Part shown: piece by piece, positions 3-8,530 of the stretch | Numbering within the stretch: position 1 is the first letter of the stretch | Layout: every line of letters starts with the position of its first letter | IMG/VR virus record: IMGVR_UViG_3300010376_002108 | Location: 14,683 to 78,682 of that record | Strand: one strand, 5' to 3' | Source: a virus | Lineage: Duplodnaviria; Caudoviricetes | DNA: 64,000 nucleotides | Made by a program: the position numbers and the translations under genes | The notes under the pieces: generated by a model | Told to the model about the DNA's origin: nothing | The model's database searches: none | The model's input: only the letters and a program-made list of their open reading frames with translations

Positions 3-257
3 AATAGTTCCACGTTCGGCTACGAGGGCGGCGGGTGGGATTCGCCGTTCTGGTCGGCCTACCAGGACCAGATGCGCGCGGGCAAGTACCCGCTGTCGCT
101 GGCCGACCTGAAAGCGGTGGGCAAGCGGATGACCGCGATCAAGGACGAGTTCCACGACGCCGGGCACGACGACTGGTACAAGGAGGCGATGGCGCGGCTG
201 CGCCGCGTCGAGCAGGCCACCCAGAACAAGACCGGCCGCACCTGGGGCAGCCTGTGA
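3..257 (+). CDS. C-terminal end of a PI3/PI4-kinase-like protein (5'-truncated by window edge)
   Basis: Frame is open from base 3: NSSTFGYEGGGWDSPFWSAY...LSLADLKAVGKRM...GHDDWY aligns with the C-termini of the two downstream kinase-like ORFs (DNSSGFG..GSPFSEAY..MTVADLEAARARL..GREDWL). Confidence 0.7.
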   Translation, partial: NSSTFGYEGGGWDSPFWSAYQDQMRAGKYPLSLADLKAVGKRMTAIKDEFHDAGHDDWYKEAMARLRRVEQATQNKTGRTWGSL

Positions 258-2383
258 GCCTGACCCTGCGCGCCTACTCGGTGGCCACCGGCAAGCCGGC
301 CGGGGACAACACGGTCACCGTGGCCGACGACGGCACGATCACCTCCACCGGGACGGTGCTGGCCCGCGAGCTGGACGCGGTGATGACCAAGCTGCGGCTG
401 CCCGCGCTGAAAGCGGCGCAGAAGATGGACGGCCAGTCCAACGGGTACGTGATCTTCGCGTCGGCGCCGCCGCGCCCGCCGCCGTGGGCGAAAAACGGCC
501 AGGCGTCCCAGGCAGTGCTGTCCCGCGCCGCCGAACACGGCCACCACATCCCCGGCACCCCGTACCATTACCGGCACGGCTGGATCCCGGTGGCGCCGTA
601 CTTCAAGACCCCCGGCGACCTGGCCCCGGGGGACATCGTGGAATTCCGGGGCCGCAAGCACATGGTGATCGCCACCCCCTCGCAGATCGCCGCCGGGGCG
701 CAGGGCATGGGCGTGCAGGGCGCCACCCGCCCCGGGCGGCCGGACCGCCGGTCGGGGGTATTCCTGCGCCCGGTGCCGGGGATCTCGTCGCTGGTCGCGC
801 CGTCGCAGGTCAAGTCGTACACGAAAGTCGCCGGGACGCCCGCCCCCGGGCATGTCGCGGCCCGCGCCCCGGGGGACGTGCGGCAGGGCGACGTCGTGCA
901 CCTGGCCCCGCACCACGACCTGCGAAGCATCTGGGGCCCCGGCTGGGGGAAGGGCGCAAAACTCGACGTGATGGAAGCCACCCCGGGGGACAACCTGGTG
1001 AAAGTCCGCCCCGCCGGGCGGCCGGGCGCGCAGGGGTACTGGCTGTCCAAAGGCACCGACATCACCCCGGCCCGGACCGGGACCAAGCCGCCGCCGGTGA
1101 TCAACCACCTGGACGGGGCGCAGCAGGTCGCCAACGCGGTCAACGCGCAGATGCCCCCCGGCGAATCCGGCCACGCCAACGGCCTGGAAATCCTGGCCCT
1201 GTTCCCCCCGCACGAAGGCGAGTCGCCCCGCGCGTACCGCAACCGGCTCGCCGGGCTGGCCCCGTGGCAGGTGGACGTGCAACGGCAGGGCGCGAAAGTC
1301 GCCGCCCAGCAGGCCGACCAGGAAGTCAAGGCGGGCATCCGCCCCGGCGCCCAGACCAAGGCGGCGGCGGCCGGCGCCCCGAGCGGGACGCTGGCCGAAG
1401 GGCAGTGGGTGCAAACCCCGTTCGGATCCGAGCACCAGGTGATCGAAGTGTTCCACAACGCGGTCCGGCTGGACGACCAGACGGTGTGGAACCGGCACGA
1501 CCTGCACCCGACCGCCACCCCGGCGGGTAAGCGCGGCCAGTCCGGGGCAGTTGAGAACCGGCTGCCGTTGCCTGAGTCCACCCCGTTCGCCGCCTACAAC
1601 CACGGCCCGGCGGTGGCCGCCAGCCCGGCCGAGCTGCGCCCCGCAGGCAATCCGGGGAAGGTCACGGTCGTGGGCCACGCCGTGTCGCCGGGGCAGGCCG
1701 AGGTGCAGGGCCACCTGGACTCGGGCATTGACTACACCGAGCACCTCGGCGCGGGCGCGCAGGGCACCGTGGACCTGGTGCACACCAAAGACGGCGGCAC
1801 GATCGTCCGCAAGAAGCTCAAGCAGGGCGGGTGGGACGCCGAGACGATGGCCGACTCGGAATACTATGCCGCGCAGGTCGCGGAGGCGATCACCGGCACC
1901 GGCGCCAGCCCGGTGATCCGGGCCAAGCGGGGCAAGCTGACCATCTACGAGAAACTGGCCCCCGGCGACATAGCCGTCAACCACTACTCGGCTGAGGACG
2001 CCGCGTATGACACGCCCCGGGGGCTGCGGATCGGCCTGCTCGACTACCTGATCGACAACGGCGACCGGCACGACTACAACTGGATGCTCGACGGATCGCA
2101 GCCGGTGCCGATCGACAACAGCTCCGGCTTCGGCGTGATAAACGCCTGGGGGTGGAACGGTTCGCCGTTCAGCGAGGCGTACCAGCGGGAATTCGAGGAC
2201 GGCCGGCCGCCGATGACCGTCGCGGACCTGGAGGCAGCGCGGGCCCGGCTGGAAGCCGAACGGGCCGACTGGGTGGCCGGCGGCCGGGAAGACTGGCTGG
2301 ACACGGTCGAATCCCGGCTGGACGGCGTCATAGACAGCACCAGGGCCGGCGGTCGCTCGCTGGCCGACGCGGGAGCGTTCTGA
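254..2383 (+). CDS. Multidomain head-region protein with C-terminal PI3/PI4-kinase-like (atypical kinase) domain
   Basis: GTG at 254 overlaps the upstream TGA. Gly-loop LGAGAQGTV, IVRKK, DSE, LLDYLIDNGDRHDYNW, PIDNS. Confidence 0.75.
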   Translation: MSLTLRAYSVATGKPAGDNTVTVADDGTITSTGTVLARELDAVMTKLRLPALKAAQKMDGQSNGYVIFASAPPRPPPWAKNGQASQAVLSRAAEHGHHIPGTPYHYRHGWIPVAPYFKTPGDLAPGDIVEFRGRKHMVIATPSQIAAGAQGMGVQGATRPGRPDRRSGVFLRPVPGISSLVAPSQVKSYTKVAGTPAPGHVAARAPGDVRQGDVVHLAPHHDLRSIWGPGWGKGAKLDVMEATPGDNLVKVRPAGRPGAQGYWLSKGTDITPARTGTKPPPVINHLDGAQQVANAVNAQMPPGESGHANGLEILALFPPHEGESPRAYRNRLAGLAPWQVDVQRQGAKVAAQQADQEVKAGIRPGAQTKAAAAGAPSGTLAEGQWVQTPFGSEHQVIEVFHNAVRLDDQTVWNRHDLHPTATPAGKRGQSGAVENRLPLPESTPFAAYNHGPAVAASPAELRPAGNPGKVTVVGHAVSPGQAEVQGHLDSGIDYTEHLGAGAQGTVDLVHTKDGGTIVRKKLKQGGWDAETMADSEYYAAQVAEAITGTGASPVIRAKRGKLTIYEKLAPGDIAVNHYSAEDAAYDTPRGLRIGLLDYLIDNGDRHDYNWMLDGSQPVPIDNSSGFGVINAWGWNGSPFSEAYQREFEDGRPPMTVADLEAARARLEAERADWVAGGREDWLDTVESRLDGVIDSTRAGGRSLADAGAF

Positions 2384-2384
2384 C

Positions 2385-3443
2385 ATGACCACGGTCATCC
2401 GCGCCTACGACTCCTACACCGGCAAGCCGCTGCCCGGCAGCGTCACCGTGGACGGGGCCACGGTGACCGCCGAGCCCGCCGGGATGGAAGCCGCGCTCAC
2501 CCGCTGGCTCGGCCCCGGGAAAACCCGCGCCGGGGCGGCCACGCTGCTGGACGGGTATAACAATGGCCGGGTGCTGTTCACCTCCGGTCCCGCGCCCAAG
2601 CCGGCCGAGGTGTCCCGGTTCAACCCGCGTGAGCTGCGCATCCCGCACGGGGCTGGCGGCGGCCGGTGGACACGCGGCCTGTCCGCCGGCGAAGCCGCCA
2701 CCGCGTCGCTGCCCTACCACGTCAAGGCGCTGCCCGGGGCGCCGGTGACCGGGGGCGCCCGGCAGGTCGCCGTGCACCTCGCCTCGGGGGTCCGGTCGGA
2801 AAAAGAGCCGGCGGTCAAGGGCATGCAGGGCACGACGACGATCGCCACGTTCGGGGACGGCGCCAAGGCTGTCCACAAAACCGGCATGGCCCCGGTCGAA
2901 TTCGACCACGAGGAATTGGCCGGCCTGGTCGCGGACGCGATCGGCGGCACCCACGCCCCGGGCGTGCTGCGCACCGGGGCGAAGGAAATGTGGCTCGGCT
3001 TCGCGGCGGGCAGCCCGGCGGTCACCGCCAAGGCCAAGCTGCACCCCGAGCAGGTGGCCACCGACCCGCACGACCACTGGGACACCGACCCGCTGTTCGC
3101 CGGCGACCGGGGCCTGCGGATCGGCCTGCTCGACCTGCTCACCGAAAACCAGGACCGGCACTGGGGCAACTGGATGATCGACGGCGACCAGCCGGTGCCG
3201 ATCGACCACTCCACCACGTTCGGCGCCAAAGGCGGCATGCCCGGCAGGTCCCCGTTCATGCTCTCCCTCACCCGCATGCACCCCGGGCATTTCACCCCCG
3301 CCCAGCTCGACCAGATCGGTGCCCGGCTGGAAGCCCTCGCCCCCGCATTCAAGGCACGCGGGCACGAGGACTGGCTGCGGATCGTGCTGAAAAACCTGGC
3401 CGACTTCCGCGAGGAAGCCGCGCAGGCACCGGGGGCCGGCTGA
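2385..3443 (+). CDS. PI3/PI4-kinase-like protein with N-terminal tag domain and FNPRE motif
   Basis: KGMQGTT, AVHK, DHEELA, LLDLLTENQDRHWGNW, PIDHS; paralog of 254-2383. Confidence 0.75.
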   Translation: MTTVIRAYDSYTGKPLPGSVTVDGATVTAEPAGMEAALTRWLGPGKTRAGAATLLDGYNNGRVLFTSGPAPKPAEVSRFNPRELRIPHGAGGGRWTRGLSAGEAATASLPYHVKALPGAPVTGGARQVAVHLASGVRSEKEPAVKGMQGTTTIATFGDGAKAVHKTGMAPVEFDHEELAGLVADAIGGTHAPGVLRTGAKEMWLGFAAGSPAVTAKAKLHPEQVATDPHDHWDTDPLFAGDRGLRIGLLDLLTENQDRHWGNWMIDGDQPVPIDHSTTFGAKGGMPGRSPFMLSLTRMHPGHFTPAQLDQIGARLEALAPAFKARGHEDWLRIVLKNLADFREEAAQAPGAG

Positions 3444-3697
3444 TGACCGACCTGTACGTGTATGACACCGCGACCGGGGCCCGGCTGGGCCGGGTCACCG
3501 TCACCGGCGGCCAGGTGGCCGCTGACAGCCCGTACGGGGTGATGGCCGGGCAGATCGCGGGGACAGCCAGCGGGCAGGCCGCAGTGCTGGCCGCGCTCAG
3601 CGGGTGGGACAACGGTTACCTACTGATCACCGCCGACCCGGCGGCCCGGTTTGCCGACACCACGCCGGGTATCCCCCGGCCGCAGGAGGGATCGTGA
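3443..3697 (+). CDS. Small protein (84 aa) consisting only of the N-terminal domain shared with the kinase-like proteins
   Basis: ATG overlaps TGA at 3441-3443. LYVYDTATG..VTV...LSGWDNGYLLIT matches the N-termini of 254 and 2385. Confidence 0.7.
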   Translation: MTDLYVYDTATGARLGRVTVTGGQVAADSPYGVMAGQIAGTASGQAAVLAALSGWDNGYLLITADPAARFADTTPGIPRPQEGS

Positions 3698-4479: not shown

Positions 4480-5484
4480 ATGCCCGACGACTGGGTGGCC
4501 GAGCAGATGGCCGCGCTCGGCCTGACGGCCCGGTTCAACCCGCGTGAGGCACGGGTGCCGCACGGGACGGGCGGCGGCCGGTGGCGGCGCATCGGCCAGG
4601 CGGTCGCCGGCGCGGCCGGGGTCGGCCACGCCGCCGAGCTGGCCGCGTTCCCCGAGGGCGCGGTGCCGCACGCCGCGCACGACCCGGGCCGCGACCGGGG
4701 CGGCGTCCTGGCCCACTTGCACGGCGAGCACGGCGGGACTGGCGGCCTGGACCTAGGCGCAGCGGACGTGGCGGCGCTGCGGCAGGCGCACGAGGACGAC
4801 CACGCCCGGTTCGCCGCGCACCTGCAAGCCGTGCACGCGGCCAAGGCGCGGGAGCGGGCCCTGGCCGGGCAGCGCGTCCCGGCGGCCCGGCCGGTGGAGG
4901 TGCCGCTGGCGGCGCGGGCGTTCAACCCGCGTGAGGCCCGCATCCCCGGCGGCCGGGGCGGCGGCCGGTGGACACGCGGCGGCCACGCGATGGTGCCGTT
5001 CGGGTTTGAGGGCAAGGCGGGCGGCGCCGGGCACGCGCGGGCGATGGAGGCGATGGCCGGCACGCTCGATGAGGAAGGCAACGGCCGGGACACGGCCCGG
5101 CTGGTCCGCGAGGCACTGCACGCGATGGTCCGCCGGGACCTGGACGCGGCCCGGCGGCACATGGACGGCGCGATCTACCAGGACCAGGTGAACAACGAAG
5201 GCGGCCACGGCCCGGAGCTGCGGGACATCAGGGCGTCGCTGGACCGGGTGCCGAAGACGGCCATGTCGATGCCCCGGCTGCCGGCGGTTCCCGCGTGGGA
5301 GAAGGCGCGCAAGGGCCTGGCCGGGCTCGGCTACCGGCCGGGCAAGGGGGTGCTGGGCGCGGATGTGACCGGCATGGGCGAGCCGGCCCAGTTTTCCGGG
5401 TACGCCGCCGGGGTCCGGTCCCGCCCCGCCGAACTGGACCGGGCAGCGGCAGCGGGCATACGCCGGCTGCGGCTGGGCGGCTGA
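4480..5484 (+). CDS. Head-region hypothetical protein with two FNPREAR.P.G.GGGRW motifs
   Basis: Motifs at aa ~18 and ~148; co-linear with the protease gene. Confidence 0.65.
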   Translation: MPDDWVAEQMAALGLTARFNPREARVPHGTGGGRWRRIGQAVAGAAGVGHAAELAAFPEGAVPHAAHDPGRDRGGVLAHLHGEHGGTGGLDLGAADVAALRQAHEDDHARFAAHLQAVHAAKARERALAGQRVPAARPVEVPLAARAFNPREARIPGGRGGGRWTRGGHAMVPFGFEGKAGGAGHARAMEAMAGTLDEEGNGRDTARLVREALHAMVRRDLDAARRHMDGAIYQDQVNNEGGHGPELRDIRASLDRVPKTAMSMPRLPAVPAWEKARKGLAGLGYRPGKGVLGADVTGMGEPAQFSGYAAGVRSRPAELDRAAAAGIRRLRLGG

Positions 5485-5485
5485 C

Positions 5486-7009
5486 GTGGACCCGCTCGCG
5501 CTGGCCGAGGCGGACACGCTGATCGCCGGCTATCAGGCGTACGGCTGGCCGGATCCTGAGCTGGCCCGGACGGCGGAGACGGCGACCGCGTCCACCGTGC
5601 ACCACCCGATTGGCCGGCCCGGCGGCCCCGGCCTGTGGAAGCACCCCACCTGGCAGCTTCCCGCCTACATCCAGAACGTGGCCAAGCACCTGGTGGTCAA
5701 GTTCGGGGAGTCACGCGGCATCGAGATGGCCGTGGGGATCGTGAAGAACTGGGCCGCCGGGCACGACGGCAAGGGCCACAGCGTCAGCGCCGTGGTGCAG
5801 GCGGCAGCAGGCCGGGCGATAGCCGAATGGGAAGCCCTCAAGGCACGAACCAAACATGGAGCGAGGCGAACCTCAGTGACCAGCAGCGGCACCGAGCAGG
5901 ACGGCCTGTCACGGGCCGCACTGGCGACGTCCAGCATCAACGACCTTCCCGACTCGGCGTTCGCGCTGATCAGCCCAGGCGGGAAAAAGGATGCCGAAGG
6001 GAAGACGACACCGCGTTCGCTCCGGCACCTGCCCATTCACGACAAGGCGCACGTCGCCAACGCGCTATCCCGGCTGCCCCAGTCGGACCTGAGCCCGGAC
6101 GAGAAAAAGCAGGCGTTCGCCAAGATCAAGGCCGCCGCGCAAAAGATGGGAGTGCAAGTGGGAGCGAACAAGGCGGTCCCGGCGGCCAGCCGGGGCCAGT
6201 TCGGGGAGATTTTCCGGTTCTGGCCGCTGGAGGAATGCCGGATCATGCGCGCCGACGAGGGCCGCGAGTACGGGTCCGGGCGGGTGGTCGAAGCGTACGC
6301 GGCGGTGTACAACACCGAGGCGGAAATCCGCGACGGCGAAGGGCACTACACCGAGGAAATCGACCCGGGCGCGTTCCGCGACGTGCTCCGCTCAATCCAC
6401 CCCGACCGCAACGGCGGCTACTGGAATACCACCTGCCTGTACAACCACGGGATGACCGTGCACGGCACCCCGGCCGAGCGGTTCAGCCTGCCCGCCGGCG
6501 TCCCGGTGCACATCGAGTCCGCCGATAAGGGCCTGGTCACCAGGACCGAGTACGCGGCCACCCCGCTGGGCGAGGAACTGCTGGAGCTGGTGAACATGGG
6601 CGCGCTGCGGTCGCAGTCGTTCACCGGCGGCATCGTCCGGTCCGACCCGCAGCTCATGCCGGGCAAGCGGTACGGCCGGGTCGGCGGGATGCTCCAGCGG
6701 GTGCGCAGGCTGGCCCTCGGCCTGCGCGAGTACGGGCTGACCCCGTTCGCGGCCTACTCGGGCGCCGAGGTGATGGGCGTCCGCATGCAGCTTCCCGGCA
6801 CGGTCACCGACGACGACAACTGGGACCAGTTGGAATCGGACCTGCTGGGGGAAACACCCGACGACGCGACGGCTCTCACCGACGAGGAAGGTGACGGCAC
6901 TGGCGGTCCGCCCGAAGACGGGCTCGCGTCCCGGTCCACCGGTAACCGGCTGTACCAGCTTCGCACCCGCGAGCTGCTGGAGCAGCACGGCATCAGCCTG
7001 CCCGAATAG
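5486..7009 (+). CDS. HK97-family prohead (capsid maturation) protease with long N-terminal extension
   Basis: YAAVYN...EEIDPGAF...LYNHG...RSQSF...LREYGLTPFAAY; directly upstream of the capsid gene. Confidence 0.85.
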   Translation: MDPLALAEADTLIAGYQAYGWPDPELARTAETATASTVHHPIGRPGGPGLWKHPTWQLPAYIQNVAKHLVVKFGESRGIEMAVGIVKNWAAGHDGKGHSVSAVVQAAAGRAIAEWEALKARTKHGARRTSVTSSGTEQDGLSRAALATSSINDLPDSAFALISPGGKKDAEGKTTPRSLRHLPIHDKAHVANALSRLPQSDLSPDEKKQAFAKIKAAAQKMGVQVGANKAVPAASRGQFGEIFRFWPLEECRIMRADEGREYGSGRVVEAYAAVYNTEAEIRDGEGHYTEEIDPGAFRDVLRSIHPDRNGGYWNTTCLYNHGMTVHGTPAERFSLPAGVPVHIESADKGLVTRTEYAATPLGEELLELVNMGALRSQSFTGGIVRSDPQLMPGKRYGRVGGMLQRVRRLALGLREYGLTPFAAYSGAEVMGVRMQLPGTVTDDDNWDQLESDLLGETPDDATALTDEEGDGTGGPPEDGLASRSTGNRLYQLRTRELLEQHGISLPE

Positions 7010-7030: not shown

Positions 7031-8530
7031 ATGCGTTTGCAGGAAATGCTGGACCGCCAGTCCGCGATCCGCAACGAGCTGGCGTCGATGGACGCCGACC
7101 CGACCGTCACCGAGGAAGGCGACGGCAACATCCGCGACACCCTCATAGACGAATATGAGGCCCTGGAGCGGCTCAAAGAGCCGGTGATCGCCCGGATGGA
7201 GAAGATCAAGCTGATCCAGCGGGCAGCCGGCGACCCGGCCAACCGGGACAGCATCGACGGCGGCTACGACGCCCCGGCGGCGGCCACGGCACAGCGGTGG
7301 CAGGGCGGCGGCACGCCCGAGTTCATGTCCCGCCTGGACCCGTTCGCGGAACTGGACAAGGTGCGGGACGGCCTGGTCCGGGGCAGCGACATGGTGGCCC
7401 GGTCGATGAACGTCATCGAGATGCACAACAAGCGGGGCATGCTGCTGCCCGAGCGGGCCGAGGAAGCCACCCGCAAGTGCGCGGGGGATCCGATGATCGC
7501 CCGGCATGCGCTGCTCACCGGCCACGACGAGTACGTGGAGGCGTTCCGCGCCTACGTCAACGACCCGCAAGGCGACGGCCTGAGAATGGCCCAGCGGTCG
7601 CTCACTCTCGGTACAGCATCAGGTGGCTATCTGCTACCGTACGTGCTTGACCCGACTATCGTGATCACGAGCGACGGGTCTGTTAATCCCTACCGCGCAA
7701 TGGCGGAAATCAAGACCACGACGTCGAACGCGTGGCAGGGCGTCAACTCGGCCGGCGTCAACATGGGCTGGCTCGATGAGGGCGGCACCGCGTCCGACAA
7801 CACGCCCGGCACCGGGCAGATCCAGGTGTTCGTCAAGAAGGCCGCCGCGTGGGTGATCGGCTCATTCGAGTCGGTGGGTGACACGAATTTCGCGGACCAG
7901 CTTCCCCGGCTGCTCGCGGACTCCAAGGACATTCTGGAGGAAGCGGCGTTCGCGCGGGGCACCGGCGGCACCGGCAACTCCGGCCAGCCGTTGGGCGTCC
8001 TCAACGCGCTCGGCACCGCGCAGCGGGTCCTGGCCGGCGGGTCGGGCCTGGCCGCGTTCACGTTCGGCACCGCCGGGGTCAACGGCGGCGGCCTGGGTGA
8101 CCTGATGGCGCTCAACTCCGCGCTCGGCCCCCGGTTCCGCATGTCGCCGTCGGTGGGCTGGGTGGCGACGATCACCAACATCAACCGGATCCGCACCCTC
8201 GACCAGTACGGAGGCGCGGGTTTCTGGGTCAACTTGGGGCAGGGCACTCCGCCTGCCCTGATGGAGAAGCAGATCCGCGAGTCGCCCAGCCTGACCCAGA
8301 CCCCGGGGACGGGCACGGCGCTGGCCGCCGCGTCGGCGGTGTTCGGGGACTGGTCGAAGTTCTATGTGGTTGACCGGATCGGGAGCACGATGCTGTTCGA
8401 CCCGCTGATCAAGAACGCGGGCACCGCCAACATGCCATCCGGCAACCAAGGCTGGTTCTACTACTGGCGGACCGGCAGTGGCGTGGCCACGCCGAACGCG
8501 TTCCGGTGGGCAACCGGCGGCACCGCGTAG
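7031..8530 (+). CDS. Major capsid protein, HK97 fold, with delta domain
   Basis: N-terminal coiled coil, RSLTLGTASGGYLLP, GTGGTGNSGQPLGV, VFGDWSKFYVVDR. Confidence 0.92.
   Translation: MRLQEMLDRQSAIRNELASMDADPTVTEEGDGNIRDTLIDEYEALERLKEPVIARMEKIKLIQRAAGDPANRDSIDGGYDAPAAATAQRWQGGGTPEFMSRLDPFAELDKVRDGLVRGSDMVARSMNVIEMHNKRGMLLPERAEEATRKCAGDPMIARHALLTGHDEYVEAFRAYVNDPQGDGLRMAQRSLTLGTASGGYLLPYVLDPTIVITSDGSVNPYRAMAEIKTTTSNAWQGVNSAGVNMGWLDEGGTASDNTPGTGQIQVFVKKAAAWVIGSFESVGDTNFADQLPRLLADSKDILEEAAFARGTGGTGNSGQPLGVLNALGTAQRVLAGGSGLAAFTFGTAGVNGGGLGDLMALNSALGPRFRMSPSVGWVATITNINRIRTLDQYGGAGFWVNLGQGTPPALMEKQIRESPSLTQTPGTGTALAAASAVFGDWSKFYVVDRIGSTMLFDPLIKNAGTANMPSGNQGWFYYWRTGSGVATPNAFRWATGGTA

Follow-up and report, generated by a model that had tools for sequence, protein, structure and literature searches.

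Three paralogous PI3/PI4-kinase-like genes and a small conserved partner domain in the head module of an actinomycete prophage

Introduction

Injected phage proteins decide the first minutes of an infection, and few enzymatic capsid cargoes have been characterised; among MuF proteins the main characterised cargoes are ADP-ribosyltransferases (ARTs) and (p)ppApp synthetases. The MuF polymorphic toxins of temperate phages were described by Jamet et al. (2017, PMC5576092), and the main text of that paper does not contain the word "kinase". Here we analyse a 64,000-nucleotide stretch of an actinomycete prophage, hereafter the window, at whose start three consecutive genes of the head module, g1, g2 and g3, end in the same domain of ~230 amino acids (aa), which resembles the PI3/PI4-kinase-like atypical kinases and is hereafter called KD. 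A second domain of ~70 aa, X, with the motif GWSNGY, stands at the N-terminus of both g2 and g3 and makes up the next gene, g4, entirely.

Polyvalent proteins (Iyer et al. 2017, PMC5512222), which are thought to enter the host with the DNA, combine MuF, ART, GNAT, peptidase and kinase modules. Their kinase is a Ser/Thr/Tyr-type domain in which the C-lobe has been lost, occurring mainly in Verrucomicrobia-Chlamydia and Bacteroidetes, and neither PI3K nor phosphatidylinositol nor HipA is mentioned in that paper. Among the Hip modules, the antitoxin HipS of the kinase HipT equals N-subdomain 1 of HipA and blocks the Gly-rich loop of the kinase with a conserved Trp wedge (PMC10627512). In hipJS and hipIN a HipS-like gene lies downstream of a short core kinase, and HipN is a larger protein whose N-terminal domain is HipS-like (PMC8262856).

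Set against these systems, the locus fits enzymatic head cargo of the MuF/polyvalent type, and what it adds is a kinase family that has not been studied and a conserved partner, X, recognised here for the first time. A preliminary description of this DNA had held that a kinase cargo array could not be placed in any described system. This was overstated, since the array fits the MuF polymorphic toxins (PMC5576092) and the polyvalent proteins (PMC5512222) and labels for the domain exist in UniProt, though we found no paper on KD itself. The same description contained neither the conserved partner domain behind each kinase nor the absence of a MuF-type domain from this provirus.

Results

Three old paralogues between portal and prohead protease

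The window comprises bases 14683-78682 of the 78.7-kb IMG/VR provirus record IMGVR_UViG_3300010376_002108 (72% G+C; the whole record is G000), and the upstream 14.7 kb of the same record (L003) were added to the analysis, which made g1, cut by the start of the window, accessible at its full length. The genes follow each other in the order large terminase (phrog_9, E 3e-44), portal (PF04860, E 2e-19), g1, g2, g3, g4, g5, g6, prohead protease and HK97-type major capsid protein, g1 beginning right behind the portal gene. The earlier placement of the array in the head-morphogenesis region is therefore correct, as the portal lies upstream and the protease (PF04586) and capsid protein (PF05065) downstream.

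KD is the C-terminal domain common to all three genes, each of which has this one recognisable enzymatic domain. The likeness far exceeds what chance would give: g2 and g3 are 38% identical over 232 columns (E 2e-25), g1 and g2 are 37% identical over 632 columns (E 2e-94), and g1 matches g3 at E 2e-18. The three divergent paralogues show 32-38% identity to one another; even the fragment of g1 inside the window aligns with the C-lobe of g2 (E 2e-11), as had been noticed from the window itself. Because the similarity between g1 and g2 spans 632 columns, g2 is paralogous to g1 over the C-terminal 60% of the latter. A tree of 195 KDs puts g1 and g2 together in one small clade, and the KD closest to that of g3 is the second of two in a metagenomic protein, P0003 (52% identity). 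Because of this separate pairing, the three copies are read as old paralogues that have been retained, not as a fresh duplication. One 195-bp stretch is 81% identical at the DNA level between g1 (G000:C1:13122-13316) and g2 (window 496-691), which, given the overall protein identity of 37%, suggests a recent gene conversion between them.

The start of g2 is the GTG at 254, which overlaps the g1 stop, and not position 35. Junctions of this kind recur along the array: GTGA at 254-257 (g1/g2), TGAcATG at 2381-2387 (g2/g3), TGATG at 3441-3445 (g3/g4) and again GTGA between g4 and g5. Because starts overlap or abut stops at these junctions, translational coupling, proposed earlier for the kinase genes, is plausible. 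We also considered whether g4 and g5 are one frameshifted gene; this was ruled out, as in L027, an independent contig, X and motif A are likewise encoded by two separate genes, X standing alone (motif A is described below).

KD has a predicted kinase fold with an intact active site

The conservation of KD was assessed in an alignment of 47 sequences with a mean column identity of 13%. Invariant positions are G39, the beta3 lysine K45, D137 and R138 of the DRH motif, N142, and I153 and D154 of the PID motif; G26 of the Gly-rich loop and the alphaC glutamate E56 are nearly so (at least 90% of the sequences). g1, g2 and g3 each retain every one of these positions, and the kinase motifs picked out in the preliminary description are thus real, conserved and present in all three copies.

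Profile searches pointed to the phosphatidylinositol kinases. PI3_PI4_kinase (PF00454) scored 16.9, 19.9 and 20.9 bits with g1, g2 and g3 (E 4e-4 to 6e-3), below its gathering cut-off of 27.1 bits and over profile positions 137-192 only, and the cut-off was passed by relatives with multiple KD copies (39.5-70.9 bits). A profile made from eight KDs matched PI4K type II alpha/beta (PI4K2A/2B) in the PDB with E 1e-3 over the catalytic loop, and a single-sequence PDB search with g3 returned only a chance match to a Fab. HipA_C (PF07804) gave no match in the provirus even at E<=10, and hhalign of KD against an actinomycete HipA core gave E 0.007 at a probability of 6%, limited to the catalytic loop.

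The AlphaFold (AF2) model of the g3 KD was of high confidence (pLDDT 93.6, pTM 0.92). With VIA-align its top match was PI4K II-alpha (4pla; Z 14.6, rmsd 3.9, 213 of 232 residues aligned), a second match to that enzyme reaching Z 13.9, and CtkA (Z 13.5), Fam20C (12.6), HipA (12.2) and HipT (10.7-11.5) came next, with actin-fragmin kinase (11.1), VPS34 (10.8), CotH (10.4) and MavQ (9.6) at the lower end. Altogether 77 PDB representatives reached Z>=8, and the best 50 of the 77 are all kinases or phosphotransferases. Foldseek gave 202 PDB matches at E<=1e-3, with CtkA at the top (E 2e-5) and, among the matches listed, kinases and phosphotransferases throughout. Structure prediction thus returned a kinase fold with PI4K type II, HipA and CotH all among the matches, and bore out the relationship suggested beforehand. 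As far as computation allows, these comparisons establish that the KD fold is protein-kinase-like, of the PI3/PI4K-HipA-CotH-Fam20 group, and that its active site is intact.

KD relatives occupy post-portal positions and giant proteins

A word-indexed homologue search with g3 gave only 7 matches, and a related-locus search with a single protein gave nothing. A degenerate DNA pattern for RIGLLD..L..N.DRH..NW found 9 viral contigs, and an exhaustive profile search found 2,903 cluster representatives (50% identity) at E<=1e-3, 474 of them at <=1e-30. Among 50,697 cultured phage records, BLAST matched KD only in Microbacterium phage Pumpernickel gp82, a hypothetical protein of ~2,235 aa downstream of the portal with one small gene between, and in Micromonospora phage pMLP1. 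A fold search of viral models further matched Mycobacterium phage Onyinye, the Gordonia phages GodonK and Sixama and two tailed viruses of haloarchaea, as well as a portal fusion and a MuF protein. Those close relatives that have names all come from Actinobacteria. The automatic annotation of UniProt names some of the phage and halovirus proteins "PI3K/PI4K catalytic domain-containing", and we found no paper on this kinase family in phage head proteins; KD is familiar to automatic annotation and, as far as we found, not to the literature.

The survey of neighbourhoods in related phages showed the same position behind the portal, and arrays of two to four KD genes recur among IMG/VR contigs. 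P0014 lies directly behind an SPP1_portal gene, P0013, with three KDs, lies behind a MuF protein, and P0011 combines MuF, KDs, SAP and ART. Head-protein domains of the MuF type occur in P0011, in P0008, where KD is fused to Phage_min_cap2, and in L024, L025 and L026, where it is fused to VG15 or Phage_min_cap2; WXG100_2, GNAT and ART are further fusion partners. Relatives are fused to MuF, Phage_min_cap2, VG15 and ART directly behind portals, and the region is one in which phages carry enzymatic head cargo, as the preliminary description had supposed. A separate phage clade (G009, G005 and G002, at L016, L017 and L018) has three to four consecutive KD genes and no Pfam-recognisable neighbours.

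Proteins of the relatives hold two to three complete KDs (up to seven matched stretches) plus ART, GNAT or amidoligase. Outside phages, KD accompanies GNAT in WXG100-type proteins of 2,800-5,600 aa and is combined with ART or amidoligase in further large proteins. Three proteins of 2,800-5,600 aa (P0025, P0033 and P0065) start with a WXG100-like domain, which suggests that they are type VII-secreted polyvalent toxins. Actinomycete (Streptosporangiales-like) chromosomes also encode KD, inside open reading frames of 7,000-13,700 aa (G080, G091, G046, G075 and G095). Because KD sits in these giant frames and in WXG100-type proteins, it is probably a general weapon of microbial conflict, beyond phages.

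A small partner domain, X, is linked to KD

X has a near-invariant Trp in its motif GW(S)NGY. In three unrelated contigs (L004, L005 and L022) the small gene directly behind the KD gene is X (E 1e-15 to 6e-7), and a hidden Markov model (HMM) of X placed it immediately behind the last KD in four loci outside the training set of the model (L007/L019, L012, L013 and L020/L021). Sampling by X alone led to the same arrangement: three of three stand-alone X homologues, from Nonomuraea, Sphaerisporangium and Microbispora, lie right behind a portal gene followed by a gene for VG15 or Phage_min_cap2 plus KD (L024-L026); L025, for example, pairs a 702-aa protein with an X of 76 aa. In a census of 151 genomes of one order, KD was found in 26 and X in 5; all five X lie downstream of a KD frame, four within ~100 nt and one ~1.6 kb past the KD inside a frame of 2,766 aa, and none was found in the 125 genomes lacking KD. 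A tblastn search with X gave no match in the 50,697 cultured phage records. The genes for KD and X are linked.

The provirus itself has three KDs and three X domains. Behind a second fusion of X to KD (P0118, in L027) come a stand-alone X and, next, a gene starting with motif A, which is the order of g3, g4 and g5, and X is also N-terminal in a 690-aa protein of L020.

We then compared X with proteins of known structure. The X model (pLDDT 78) is a beta-beta-beta-alpha-alpha-beta fold, and ranks 3-6 of 48,161 chains were HipS of Legionella (HipS(Lp)), HipS of E. coli (HipS(Ec)) and N-subdomain 1 of two HipA structures, all weak at Z 2.7-2.8; in a second structural look chains of HipS(Lp) were the top two (Z up to 2.9), and RRM/RWD-like folds matched at similar Z. 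With hhalign, X matched a HipA N-subdomain profile built from 20 actinomycete HipA loci at E 4e-4 (controls: 0.095 and 0.42), at a probability of only 35% and over 27 columns, the region in question consisting of two helices up to a terminal G-W-S in X and G-x-D in HipA. PDB sequences gave only the uncharacterised 4kwy (E 0.009) and calmodulin-type chance matches. On balance we lean towards X being a HipS-like (HipA N-subdomain-1-like) kinase-binding module.

The N-terminus of g1, motif A and neighbouring genes

The N-terminal part of g1 contains an HExxH at aa 130 and gave a weak Atlas lead to Peptidase_M78 (0.88); a near-length search found no homologue, and BLAST found no similarity to the MuF or VG15 parts of the relatives. 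g1 and g2 have in common a beta-rich B region with the motif YHYRHGWIPV, to which (P)KGYxH(G/N)W in the KD proteins P0004-P0007 is related. Another motif, A (FNPRExRxPHGxGGGRW), occurs twice in g1, once each in g3 and g5, and twice in g6, and the motif-A segment of g3 is 51% identical to that at the N-terminus of g1. Motif A is a local variant of the widespread short motif (W/F)(N/D)Px(L/K)HPRDxxGRF, of which we counted 29 occurrences in 151 KD-bearing proteins against one in shuffled copies; in 7 of these 29 cases a KD follows within 80 aa. Motif A may be an inter-domain processing or capsid-loading signal.

The coordinates of all features are collected in Table 1. The N-terminal DUF6582 of the prohead protease (E 3.6e-6) lies ahead of Peptidase_S78, and the N-terminus also has a loosely motif-A-like HHPIGRPGGPGLW. 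Upstream of the terminase, a 205-aa frame (L003:5044-5658) gave a weak match, under the cut-off, to a DddA-like double-stranded-DNA deaminase toxin (PF14428, E 0.018).

Table 1 Features of the KD locus. Positions are those of the window unless another sequence is named.
Feature	Position	Strand	Content and evidence
g1, 3' end (kinase C-lobe)	3..257	+	full gene G000:C1:11931-14939 (L003:11931-14939), 1002 aa, P0001
g1, order of parts	KD HMM match 3-248		motif A, HExxH region, motif A', beta-rich B region, KD (aa 770-1002); PF00454 E 0.0063, sub-threshold
g2, 709 aa	254..2383	+	X 257-481 (iE 2.5e-22); B region paralogous to g1 aa 403-770; KD 1667-2380 (iE 1.9e-82); PF00454 E 7.5e-4
g3, 352 aa	2385..3443	+	X 2388-2609; motif A FNPRELRIPHGAGGGRW ~2616-2675; KD 2742-3440 (copy modelled); PF00454 E 3.9e-4
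g4, 84 aa	3443..3697	+	stand-alone X, motif GWDNGY, beta-beta-beta-alpha-alpha-beta; start overlaps g3 stop (TGATG)
g5, ~198 aa	3694..4290	+	degenerate motif A (RELRVPHGPHGGEW), coiled-coil-like stretch, hydrophobic C-terminus; GTGA overlap with g4
g6, 334 aa	4480..5484	+	two motif A copies; no family assigned
Motif A sites	2616-2675, ~3751, 4531-4590, ~4921; L003:11931-12020, ~12870		
Prohead serine protease	5486..7009	+	Peptidase_S78 (PF04586) with N-terminal DUF6582; Pfam
HK97-type major capsid protein	7031..8530	+	PF05065; Pfam

Discussion

We favour, with a probability of roughly 0.55, the reading that g1-g3 encode paralogous head-module kinases with a HipS-like partner, X, and that these are probably capsid cargo ejected into the next host. 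KD would then be a catalytically active atypical kinase of minimal size (~230 aa) that belongs to the PI4K-II/CtkA/Fam20/HipA structural group. Its family would be kinase cargo, carried as the enzymatic tip at the C-terminus of minor head proteins encoded behind the portal and of giant proteins of the polyvalent or WXG100 type. A KD protein would be packed in the capsid, ejected with the DNA and then phosphorylate a host target, for which a protein is favoured by analogy with HipA/HipT, CtkA and T7 gp0.7. X would restrain or complete the kinase in the producing cell, as HipS does for HipT and the downstream HipS-like genes for their kinases in hipJS and hipIN. It would do so either by serving the preceding KD in trans, which in the simple loci would be obligatory, or, in the manner of HipA, by acting in cis; with translational coupling the two would be made in matched amounts. 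Were X held non-covalently, it could be stripped off during passage through the tail, and the kinase would be switched on in the new host.

The arrangement of the provirus can be pictured along the same lines. Duplication of a segment made up of B, KD, stop and X would yield g2 (X-B-KD), and g3 would be X plus a copied N-terminal motif-A segment of g1 plus KD. Through tandem duplication of the unit KD-stop-X, each X would thereby have become the N-terminal part of the kinase that follows it, giving the series KD, X-B-KD, X-A-KD, X, in which the fused X could tether the paralogues into one chain for co-packaging. A more far-reaching version, which we regard as speculative and rather unlikely, is a widespread, undescribed two-part capsid cargo of actinomycete (perhaps also haloarchaeal) tailed phages, in which a minimal PI4K/HipA-like kinase on the tip of a post-portal head protein would be held by a dedicated HipS-like clamp, encoded immediately behind it, until ejection removes the clamp, the present locus encoding a self-inhibiting, self-tethering chain of three divergent kinases loaded and delivered together.

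Several results weigh against the favoured reading. None of PF04233, PF06152 and PF25310, which between them represent the MuF, VG15 and Phage_min_cap2 types, matched the provirus at E<=10, and g1 aa 1-770 (L003:11931-14237) had no Pfam or useful PHROG family; because of these two negatives, attachment to the portal or capsid is argued from the position of the genes and from the relatives alone. The ratio of KD to X is not always one to one, P0003 having two KDs and one X and the P0013 locus four KDs and one X, and the HMM of X detected none in the KD-array clade of G002, G005 and G009 (L018, L017 and L016), because of which it appears that a kinase array can exist without X. As to the likeness of X to HipS, the best structural match of X was at Z 3.2, all matches being at or under that value and hence under the stated noise level of the tool, Foldseek with the X model gave nothing significant, Couple_hipA (PF13657) had no match in the provirus at E<=10, and the hhalign match is short and of low probability. 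The activity, packaging and substrate put forward here are predictions, and a protein substrate is the less secure because a lipid kinase is the best match of KD both in fold and in profile.

In another reading, a delivered or secreted KD phosphorylates phosphatidylinositol, a target already named in the preliminary description, or another membrane lipid of the host. Phosphatidylinositol is a major and partly essential lipid of actinobacteria, to which all the named close relatives of KD belong; PI4K II-alpha heads the fold comparison (Z 14.6 and 13.9), PI4K2A/2B heads the PDB profile matches, PI3_PI4_kinase is the sole Pfam family that matches KD, and the Gly/Trp-rich activation-loop region of g1 and g2 could touch a membrane. 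Yet the protein kinases CtkA, Fam20C and HipA score within 1-3 Z units of PI4K II-alpha, similarity in sequence is limited to the catalytic loop, the catalytic domain of PI4K II exceeds KD by ~120 residues, and the same fold is found in haloarchaeal tailed viruses; a HipS-like partner would also point to the protein kinases of the Hip paradigm, so that we consider lipid kinases improbable. Slightly less probable still is that KDs act in the producing cell as assembly kinases, phosphorylating structural proteins of the phage (scaffold, capsid, portal or motif-A proteins) without being delivered. CotH acts on the spore coat and Fam20C on secreted proteins, and both are among the fold matches; the genes lie in the head-assembly operon between portal and protease, and motif A in the neighbours g5 and g6 could be a substrate or docking site. 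A role confined to assembly is difficult to reconcile, however, with the fusion of KD to ART, GNAT, amidoligase and WXG100-type export domains in giant non-phage proteins that act on other cells, and three paralogues as divergent as these are hard to square with one assembly task. That KDs are pseudokinases or mere structural spacers of a head protein seems very improbable: their activity is a prediction and some relatives have DRG or DRN in place of DRH, but PI4K II itself has DRG, and the beta3 lysine, the Asp-Arg and Asn of the catalytic loop and the Asp that binds metal have stayed invariant in 47 diverse KDs at so low a mean column identity.

For X, the competing possibility is a small head-module or docking domain that targets proteins to the capsid interior or the portal, its likeness to HipS being a chance similarity of small alpha/beta folds. 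In its favour, the N-terminal position of X in g2, g3, P0118 and the 690-aa protein of L020 fits targeting, loci with several KDs have a single X, the Z values are under the noise level with RRM/RWD-like folds scoring similarly, and Couple_hipA gives no match. Against it, every X found lies downstream of a KD frame, mostly immediately, across VG15, Phage_min_cap2 and different types of portal, and X is absent from the 50,697 cultured phages. HipS and HipA N-subdomains also hold four of the top six ranks of 48,161 chains, and the hhalign E-value is 4e-4 against 0.1-0.4 for the controls. We regard the docking domain as possible but doubtful, and keep to X as a kinase partner.

The analysis defines a kinase cargo family of ~2,900 sequence clusters with a clean active site and a high-confidence model, and adds to it a small conserved partner that had gone unnoticed, so that the family is now directly testable. 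Three fields meet in it: the effectors of the MuF and polyvalent kinds, the HipA-type kinase toxins together with their HipS-type antitoxins, and the PI3/PI4 kinases with regard to their bacterial relatives. If the two-part cargo proves true, the logic of toxin-antitoxin systems would have been reused as a "safety catch" for an injected effector.

Comparison with known systems

Among characterised kinases, PI4K type II (4pla, 4hnd) is the closest to KD in structure and shares with it the loop LD..I.N.DR..NW, found by the profile search, but the identity is 13-14%, KD is much smaller and without the palmitoylated and membrane inserts, and the Pfam scores of g1-g3 are below the cut-off. CtkA of Helicobacter pylori (3akj/3akl) is a secreted Ser/Thr kinase that acts outside the producer cell. 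It is, like KD, a small bacterial atypical kinase and is the top Foldseek match, but there is no detectable sequence similarity between the two, and CtkA is not a phage-borne cargo.

The resemblance to HipT-HipS, hipJS and hipIN lies in a short core kinase without the N-subdomain and a separate small partner, which is downstream as in hipJS and hipIN. X has a near-invariant Trp as HipS does, and the KD fold compares with HipA and HipT at Z 12.2 and 10.7-11.5, X with HipS and HipA N-subdomains weakly, at Z 2.7-2.9. Unlike the Hip modules, the locus has no HipA_C or Couple_hipA match and no HipB or helix-turn-helix gene, X has ~70 aa instead of ~100 aa, and KD and X sit in a virion head operon, fused to head proteins, instead of in a toxin-antitoxin operon. 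No target such as GltX or TrpS is known for KD.

Like the modules of polyvalent proteins, KD is found in proteins or frames of 2,000-13,700 aa with ART, GNAT, amidoligase and SAP; unlike the kinase of those proteins, it keeps a helical C-lobe, is PI4K/HipA-like and has actinobacterial named members. From the MuF toxins the locus differs in lacking a detectable MuF-type domain, in having three tandem paralogous cargo genes instead of one, and in the fusion of the downstream partner X to the next cargo gene. It shares with them a post-portal gene in the head module, a variable C-terminal enzymatic domain and a small gene directly behind it in the position of the immunity gene, and close KD relatives are fused to Phage_Mu_F, Phage_min_cap2 or VG15. 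By analogy with the layout of the MuF toxins, KD would be the toxin and X its immunity protein.

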